A stretch of DNA of 64,000 nt from a virus. Taxonomy: Duplodnaviria; Heunggongvirae; Uroviricota; Caudoviricetes. The notes beneath the pieces are model-generated. The model had not been told where the DNA came from. It made no database searches and saw only the letters and a program-made list of their open reading frames with translations. Position numbers and translations under genes: made by a program. Location of the stretch: positions 10,779 to 74,778 of the IMG/VR virus record IMGVR_UViG_3300029874_000006; one strand, written 5' to 3'. Within the stretch, counting starts at the first letter, position 1; each line of letters begins with the position of its first letter. This document shows positions 40,018 through 40,788 of this stretch, one piece after another.

Positions 40018-40788
40018 TTATACCCTCTCTTTCGAGATATTTAGTTTATTAATAACATAATCTTTTATTTCAGCTTTTCGTTCATCTGAAATTTTATCAA
40101 TATAAGATTTATATACTGAATCATTAGCTTCATTTCTATACGATTTTAACATATATATTTCACAAAGATACCTTTGATATACTGCTTCTTCTTTTAATGT
40201 ATATTCTTTCATATAATATCTTTGTTTCATATAAGTAAAATCAGTCTTCCATTTGTTACTTTTTTTACAAAAGGAAACTCCTCGTATTCCGGAAGTATTA
40301 GTAGATTTCTTTTGCAGATTTAACATATTTTCTTGTACAGTTACTTCTCTAAGATTAGATTTCCTATTGTCACGAGTGTCACCACTTATATGATCCACTT
40401 GTTTATCAGTAGGCAATACCAGTCTATGAAAGTATATACGCTCTTTTTTCTAATTTCCTGTAAATAAATATGGTTTATCATTTTTATAAACAGTTCTCCA
40501 TTTATGACCCTTTAATTTCGAAATGTCATTTACATCTAGAATAAATGTTTCCATAACATTTCCATAAGAATCATAAGTATCTATTTCTGCAAAATTATCT
40601 TTTAATCTAATTTCATTATCATCAAATACACCTCTTGGATTAGAGTCTTTAAATTCTCCATAATTTTTAAACTGCCTTGCGTGTTTAAGACAGAGTGTTT
40701 TTCCAGCTAAGTTATTAAAACTCACTTGTTTAAATTTTGATGATACACCACATACTTCACAAAAGCGTTCTTCAGTTATTTTTCTCAT
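40018..40788 (-). CDS. HNH-AP2 homing endonuclease paralog carrying one in-frame TAG (recoded Gln, or a nonsense pseudogene)
   Basis: ORF-track pieces 40450..40788 and 40018..40416 are in the same frame, separated only by TAG (at 40450-40452 on the + strand). Across the TAG, ...KPYLFTGN-TAG-KKERIYFHRLVL...[27 protein letters not shown] aligns with the intact paralog ...KKYFVHRFLMG...[24 protein letters not shown]. Confidence 0.55.

Follow-up and report, generated by a model that had tools for sequence, protein, structure and literature searches.

What does one in-frame TAG signify in an otherwise intact homing endonuclease gene, when the phage that carries it reads TAG as sense in one part of its genome and keeps the standard code in another? 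The gene concerned, HNH-2, lies on the minus strand of a 64,000-nt stretch of viral DNA (hereafter the window; GC content 31%). A first-pass annotation of this stretch had proposed two readings, namely recoding used to time the production of a selfish nuclease, and a freshly inactivated copy. Related loci are cited below by L numbers and proteins by P numbers.

An endonuclease gene within nrdD

HNH-2 (40018..40788, minus strand) comprises 256 codons and a TAA stop, and would encode an intron-borne homing endonuclease with an HNH_3 and an AP2-like domain. As first reported, its two pieces are co-linear and in frame: positions 40788..40018 form one frame of 257 codons, of which the TAG at 40452..40450 is the sole interruption. 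The N-terminal part (40453..40788, minus strand; 112 codons) holds a Cys/His motif (C10, C13, C33, H36) and a beta-rich domain, and its 112 residues, without the nuclease, are the standard-code product of the window allele. The C-terminal part (40018..40449, minus strand; 143 codons and the stop) holds the HNH motif (D132-H133, N141, N145, N157), the AP2-like domain and helices, and is translated only with readthrough of the TAG.

The Pfam HNH_3 profile (PF13392) matched residues 125-155 with 37.5 bits against a cutoff of 24.8. Among 51 homologs H133, N141, N145 and N157 are invariant and D132 nearly so, and all of these residues are present in the window allele. The AP2 profile scored 18.5 bits, below its cutoff of 33.3; several homologs have precomputed PF00847 (AP2) matches, and HNH-2 conforms to the AP2/ERF fold. 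The protein database holds 88 homologs, mostly full-length at about 256 aa, while a PDB sequence search with HNH-2 returned no solved relative and Foldseek matches against the PDB were weak. Intact alleles show dN/dS of 0.07-0.19 in both halves of the gene, and this purifying selection implies that the family is active. Judged by its domains and its position, HNH-2 is best regarded as a group I intron-encoded homing endonuclease of the ordinary HNH/AP2 type. Magnani and co-workers are said to have described, in 2004, HNH-AP2 homing endonucleases of phages and cyanobacteria in which an HNH_3 motif precedes an AP2-like DNA-binding domain; the HNH-2 family shares this core architecture but adds the N-terminal Cys/His motif and beta domain.

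That N-terminal region is well conserved in its own right, with C10, C13, C33 and H36 invariant and the beta domain well predicted, as would be expected if the truncated 112-residue product were itself what the allele serves to make, such as a competitor or repressor that binds DNA but lacks nuclease activity. Such a role is very improbable, as no ortholog ends at this point, the downstream 143 codons are intact and identical to those of the functional allele apart from the synonymous change described below, and selection for truncation has left no sign.

The host gene encodes NrdD and is split into three exons, all on the minus strand. Its annotated ORF (42676..44421, minus strand; 581 aa) matches the Pfam model, which has 562 positions, at 11-414 only. 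Exon 1 (42694..44421) contains the ATP-cone and the N-terminal part of NRDD and ends ...EAIP. It is followed by intervening sequence 1 (41460..42693; 1234 nt), which carries the intact paralog HNH-1 (41468..42442), and by exon 2 (41078..41459), which runs from GEGLGVKLYNW to YYTRIIG plus the first base of a Tyr codon. The second intron (40015..41077; 1063 nt), annotated as group I, has the putative ribozyme core in its 5' part and the endonuclease ORF in its 3' part, and exon 3 (39911..40014) completes the gene with ..YLVCVDNWSNPRQLEFAIRKYKSGDRSFTYKPNL*. Joining exons 2 and 3 (41078 to 40014) gives RIIG-YLVCVDNW, so that the split falls at RIIG-YL and in frame; RI.GYL is what we take to be the expected glycyl-radical motif of NrdD. 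The intron-less nrdD junction at the intron 2 site reads ...AGAATTATTGGGT|ATTTAGTGTG.... Just after the nrdD stop, a stretch at 39870..39931 (minus strand) consisting of a AAUUUUUGGAG motif and a hairpin, and recurring in L098, matched the Rfam SmY model with 27.5 bits (gathering score 39); the match was dismissed as probably fortuitous, the hairpin being terminator-like.

The borders of intron 2 show a 5' exon ending ...AUU GGG U (U at -1) and an intron ending ...AAAGG (terminal G), and P-, Q-, R- and S-like elements were located within it. When 40770..41095 was scanned alone, and only then, the Rfam model Intron_gpI aligned to 40802..41087 (30.4 bits, gathering 50; E 3.7e-6; model positions 1-253). 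Neither nrdD intron gave a group I match at the gathering threshold, or at E<=10 over 39600..42900, and the ORF-less intron of MT835492 likewise gave none. Intervening sequence 2 is on these features a probable group I intron. In MT835492, intron 2 has lost the endonuclease ORF by deletion, and the exons rejoin identically.

The HNH-2 ORF begins 14 nt past the putative ribozyme core, and 3 nt lie between its end and the 3' splice site. The deleted intron of MT835492.1 (L001; 4297..4623, compared with window 40010..40100 and 40787..41091), from a more distant phage, keeps the last 26 ORF codons (..DKISEERKAEIKEYVINKLNISKERV*) at 93% nucleotide identity, and the C-terminal peptide KLNISKERV is unusually conserved among HNH-2 homologs. 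This part of the ORF may thus have a second role, as intron structure close to the 3' splice site.

Intervening sequence 1 has an R-like (42579) and an S-like (42536) element and gave no Rfam match when scanned alone. It is polymorphic among strains of 97-99% identity, being present in L006, L007, L018, L107 and L109, precisely absent from L005, L099, L101, L103 and L106, and present with most of HNH-1 gone (window ~42461..41650 missing) in L098, L100, L102, L104 and L105. Relative to the window, L005 shows two synonymous third-position changes at 42697 and 42700 (GCC>GCT and ATC>ATT), both within 7 nt of the intron 1 insertion site, a pattern expected of homing-site variation or of a co-conversion tract. 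Around window 43518..43528, exon 1 of L099 is split again into parts of 303 aa and 429 aa, separated by about 270 nt, which suggests that this strain carries a third intervening sequence in nrdD at another site.

A second gene of the window is divided in a similar manner. The PolA pieces (25831..27780 and 25389..25715, minus strand) are split by an ORF-less group I intron at 25633..25859 (minus strand), which Rfam recognised at 81 bits, above the gathering score. The first-pass annotation had pointed out that the N-terminal PolA piece ends in TAG; this stop exists, but it lies inside the intron (25859..25633) and is irrelevant to recoding.

Codon use across the strand switch

The plus strand of the window opens with a late block (2..15673) made up of three very long ORFs that are open only with TAG as sense. 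These ORFs (2..9796, 9786..10844 and 10823..15673) have 3265, 353 and 1617 codons with 98, 10 and 52 in-frame TAGs, for a block total of 160 TAGs in 5,232 codons; read with the standard code, that strand has almost no ORFs there. The minus-strand block (about 16171..63752, 48 kb) contains 85 standard-code ORFs; among them are genes of replication and nucleotide metabolism, such as those for PolA, for helicases (DnaB-like and others), for ligases, for a sigma factor and for NrdD. The change of code falls where the coding strand switches, near 15.7-16.2 kb. At one place the gene model is ambiguous, with overlapping ORFs of more than 100 aa on both strands (59154..59522, minus; 59179..59556, plus; 59413..59730, minus).

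Seven relatives with 89-99% amino acid identity over ORF 10823..15673 were used to assign a residue to the late-gene TAG. The window TAGs align with TAG or with CAA/CAG in these relatives, with the lone exception of one TTG. In L013, the most divergent of the seven, they face 16 CAA and 2 CAG codons, and in the reverse comparison the L013 TAGs face 13 CAA, 4 CAG, 1 CAT and 1 AAA in the window. The exchange with CAA and CAG bears out the earlier supposition that this phage reads TAG as sense, and indicates that TAG in the late genes is decoded as Gln. Turnover at these sites is fast: 35 of 80 late-gene Gln-class sites switch state at 89% amino acid identity. Three late-gene homologs at 24-36% identity (L008, L009, L017) were too distant for the assignment, showed weak Gln enrichment and were dropped in favour of the closer relatives.

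No suppressor tRNA(CUA) was found in the 64-kb window or in the 10 kb past its right end, out of a genome of roughly 180 kb. In a related contig, an array of seven tRNAs (Ala, Gly, Asp, Ile, Thr, Met, Tyr; L112, 5890..6976) lies on the early-gene strand about 3-4 kb past the position of the right end of the window, downstream of genes for a P-type cation ATPase and adenylosuccinate synthetase; there is no tRNA(CUA) among the seven.

Counts of Gln-class codons differ sharply between the two blocks. The late block has 79 CAA, 24 CAG and 160 TAG (61% TAG, 160/263), whereas the minus-strand genes have 294 CAA and 156 CAG (n = 450) and, the HNH-2 TAG aside, no TAG over 14,613 codons. The survey of TAG use in minus-strand genes that the first-pass annotation had called for thus returned no other internal TAG, and HNH-2 is both the sole interrupted gene of this block and the sole gene there with a genuine internal TAG. 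Among 12 related loci, no Gln>TAG polymorphism was found in other early genes; the few stop-creating differences in the early genes of those loci, none of them at Gln codons, are suspected to be alignment artefacts near indels. TAG avoidance in the early block is thus established.

Four minus-strand genes genuinely end in TAG (62735..63154, 60470..60979, 56239..56502 and 45426..46943). Each of the four is followed, after 3-4 codons, by a TAA or TGA, and nearby back-up stops of this kind have been noted for TAG-ended genes of Zeta crAss-like phages (PMC12386605). As a special pattern this is marginal (p about 0.045) and was rejected as unconvincing, because such a stop follows within 4 codons in 46% of the other genes as well.

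Phages of the Zeta crAss-like group have 145-192 kb genomes, encode PolA, are rich in introns and reassign TAG or TGA mostly in late genes (Yutin et al. 2021, PMC7886860). The close relatives of the window are, similarly, viral contigs of 150-190 kb, and its nrdD has about 68% DNA identity to that of the IAS virus (Crassvirales). The source fits a large TAG-to-Gln recoded crAss-like phage with features like those of the Zeta group.

Ancestry and frequency of the TAG allele

Codon 113 (40450..40452, minus strand), where orthologs have CAG or CAA, stands in a conserved block that reads ...PYLFTGNQKKER... when TAG is taken as Gln. The first-pass annotation had expected Gln at the homologous position, and the TAG column is indeed Gln in 43 of 51 aligned homologs, within the block KPYLFTGN-Q-K.ERIYFHRLV. 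The DNA of two homologs (96% and 83% amino acid identity) has CAG at the site, as have all ten sampled contigs that encode the window protein with Gln, and also L018. A survey by DNA pattern, which accepted CAA, CAG, TAA or TAG at the codon, recovered 21 orthologs from viral and metagenome contigs; the codon is CAG in 17 of them, CAA in 4 and TAG in none. Given CAG or CAA in the orthologs, the window allele derives from a single C>T transition at 40452.

Two nucleotides separate the window allele from the nearest intact alleles (L103, L106): the C>T at 40452 and a synonymous G>A at 40279. The latter is the sole change downstream of the TAG, and the allele has no further stop or frameshift. A conserved residue other than Gln, together with additional disabling mutations, had been named beforehand as the mark of a plain pseudogene; what we found is a conserved Gln and no second lesion. 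The nature of the lesion and its ancestry are established by these comparisons.

The TAG allele is identical in three loci from separate assemblies (ERZ25037490, ERR912177, ERZ857864), of four contigs recorded. A sequencing or assembly error is a practically negligible explanation for an allele that recurs unchanged in three separately assembled samples and on two flanking haplotypes. One of its carriers, L005, is a distinguishable strain, 99.0-99.7% identical and without intron 1. Its flank is that of the CAG-bearing L018, but its endonuclease haplotype is that of the window; recombination has therefore placed the TAG allele on at least two backgrounds, and the allele must have persisted long enough for this. 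These two flank haplotypes are not evidence of homing, because the breakpoints fall inside the intron. We also considered HNH-2 as an island of zero divergence in L005, as recent homing might leave, and found the comparison uninformative: divergence is patchy and the surrounding 1.5 kb are also nearly identical.

The allele is rare: its pieces were recorded on about 4 contigs, whereas the protein with Gln in place of the TAG (P0089) was recorded on 420 contigs (832 index blocks). The TAG allele thus reaches about 0.5% of the frequency of the otherwise identical CAG allele. Twenty unique nucleotide versions of HNH-2 together contain 124 CAA, 33 CAG and a single TAG (1/158 Gln-class codons), and this lone TAG is that of the window allele. 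At least some of the 20 versions come from recoded phages, as L118 and L119 share contigs with the TAG-recoded late ORFs L011 and L010. These counts establish TAG avoidance within the family as well, and show that the selfish intron gene HNH-2 obeys the early code like the rest of the early block.

The same counts bear on whether the change is simply silent, as it would be if the endonuclease were normally translated with suppression already on, making CAG>TAG synonymous and leaving the gene fully functional. TAG means Gln in the late genes, here it replaces a conserved Gln in a gene with no other lesion, and the context of TAG followed by A is common among late-gene sense TAGs (50/160). The chance of hitting this nonsense type is also low: by enumeration, CAG>TAG makes up 1.4-4.3% of nonsense changes if these strike the intact allele at random, and roughly 14% at most, an estimated upper bound, if only GC>AT transitions are counted. 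A neutral TAG should, however, be as frequent as it is in the late genes, rather than occur once among the 158 Gln-class codons of the 20 versions, and both the extreme rarity of the allele and the absence of TAG beside 450 Gln codons in the surrounding block speak against neutrality. A silent substitution is, on balance, unlikely.

Other alleles of the gene, in the same 90% cluster of 373 members, are plainly broken. A 1-nt deletion at codon 159 characterises P0095, which was found on 4 contigs (L109-L111), and P0101 (2 contigs) combines the P0095 frameshift with a 6-nt deletion. L108 (P0102; 3 contigs) has a 1-nt deletion at codon 114 and a 2-nt deletion at codon 211, and the DNA-pattern survey returned two more frameshifted alleles, in L128 and L135. 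Decay of sibling alleles by frameshift is thus established, and the frameshifted alleles occur at a frequency similar to that of the TAG allele. The gain, truncation and loss of nrdD introns and endonuclease genes among near-identical strains is the usual life cycle of homing endonucleases.

Loss, rescue and timing

The reading that we favour, with moderate confidence, is that the window carries a young nonsense allele that would be truncated under standard decoding and readable to wild-type protein once Gln-inserting suppression is on. One recent C>T converted the conserved Gln-113 codon from CAG to TAG in this strain. Standard decoding, the code of the whole minus-strand block, would then stop translation after 112 residues, before the nuclease motif, so that the allele would be null or a strong hypomorph early in infection. 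With Gln-inserting amber suppression on for the late genes, remaining endonuclease mRNA would be read through to wild-type protein, and such late rescue is plausible because TAG stands for Gln in those genes. We infer, in short, early truncation and late read-through of HNH-2. The TAG allele would be a conditionally rescuable pseudogene, and would represent the first step of the usual decay cycle of homing endonucleases rather than a selected timing device. The freshly inactivated copy of the first-pass annotation is accordingly the better of its two proposals, and indeed the best fit, with the twist that the lesion is of a type that the late decoding of the phage could rescue.

Some observations argue against plain decay. 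Of all nonsense changes, the late code makes only this type synonymous, a coincidence that is real but rests on a single event. The TAG allele has also acquired no second lesion, and it has persisted on two haplotypes. It is too young for a dN/dS test.

A more elaborate possibility is that TAG was selected to block the endonuclease until the code switches, which would protect early nrdD splicing or replicating DNA. Ribosomes at the 3' end of the ORF could plausibly interfere with nrdD splicing, because the ORF ends so close to the 3' splice site (3 nt) and because its last 26 codons survive in the ORF-deleted intron. In phage T4, delayed translation of I-TevI protects splicing of the td intron and is needed for it to be efficient (Gibb & Edgell 2010, as cited in Edgell et al. 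2011, PMC3073962). A precedent closer to the present case is offered by the TGA-recoded Agate phages, in which the endonuclease of a group I intron within an early gene prefers the recoded stop, and its production has been argued to be delayed (Borges et al., 10.1101/2021.08.26.457843). Extended to HNH-2, the idea would be that an early stop at codon 113 spares nrdD splicing, that the late nuclease homes into intron-less or ORF-less nrdD, and that the TAG allele is a young variant on the rise; we give this code-dependent switch little credence. The TAG is unconserved, the other surveyed orthologs have CAG or CAA, and no other position of the ORF has a TAG. The allele is rare, it lies 2 nt from the common intact allele, and broken frameshift alleles are similarly frequent. 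Recoding as an evolved timer of a selfish nuclease, the bolder of the two original proposals, is thus unsupported by an allele so rare and recent in a family and a block that avoid TAG, and we consider selection for delay improbable.

The Agate case and HNH-2 are alike in that an intron-borne endonuclease, located in an early standard-code gene of a recoded phage, has the recoded stop in frame. They are unlike in that the Agate preference for TGA (Trp) is family-wide (p = 1.3e-3), whereas HNH-2 has one TAG in one rare allele of a family that otherwise avoids TAG. The timer idea is already in the literature for TGA-recoded phages; what is new here is an allele-level example in a TAG-recoded crAss-like phage, not a new type of system. 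Among crAss-like phages themselves, one genome has a PolB whose gene and whose intron ORFs have several TGA codons needing suppression (PMC7886860). Recoded codons are there found in both host gene and intron ORF, unlike the present locus, where nrdD and the block are free of TAG and the endonuclease has one.

I-TevI resembles HNH-2 in that its ORF overlaps sequences needed for splicing; in T4, early ribosomes harm splicing and late expression is favoured. It differs in that T4 achieves the delay by masking the ribosome-binding site in an RNA hairpin and not through the genetic code, and in that I-TevI is a GIY-YIG and not an HNH enzyme.

T4 I-TevIII was reportedly inactivated irreversibly by a deletion. 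The lesion of HNH-2, in contrast, is a single amber, and late decoding could restore the original residue. The two cases are otherwise alike: I-TevIII, in the nrdB intron, is described as a defunct homing endonuclease (PMC2790892, PMC1865063), and in both phages an intron of a ribonucleotide reductase gene, group I in T4 and probably so here, persists while its HNH-type gene decays.

A single TAG allele, taken alone, changes nothing fundamental. The locus does reveal a sharp code boundary inside a recoded phage, from no TAG beside 450 Gln codons in the replication block to 160 TAGs out of 263 in the late block. Nonsense changes from Gln to TAG in such phages would form a special class of conditionally rescuable lesions, and counting them across many mobile-element genes would provide a population-genetic test of when suppression takes effect.
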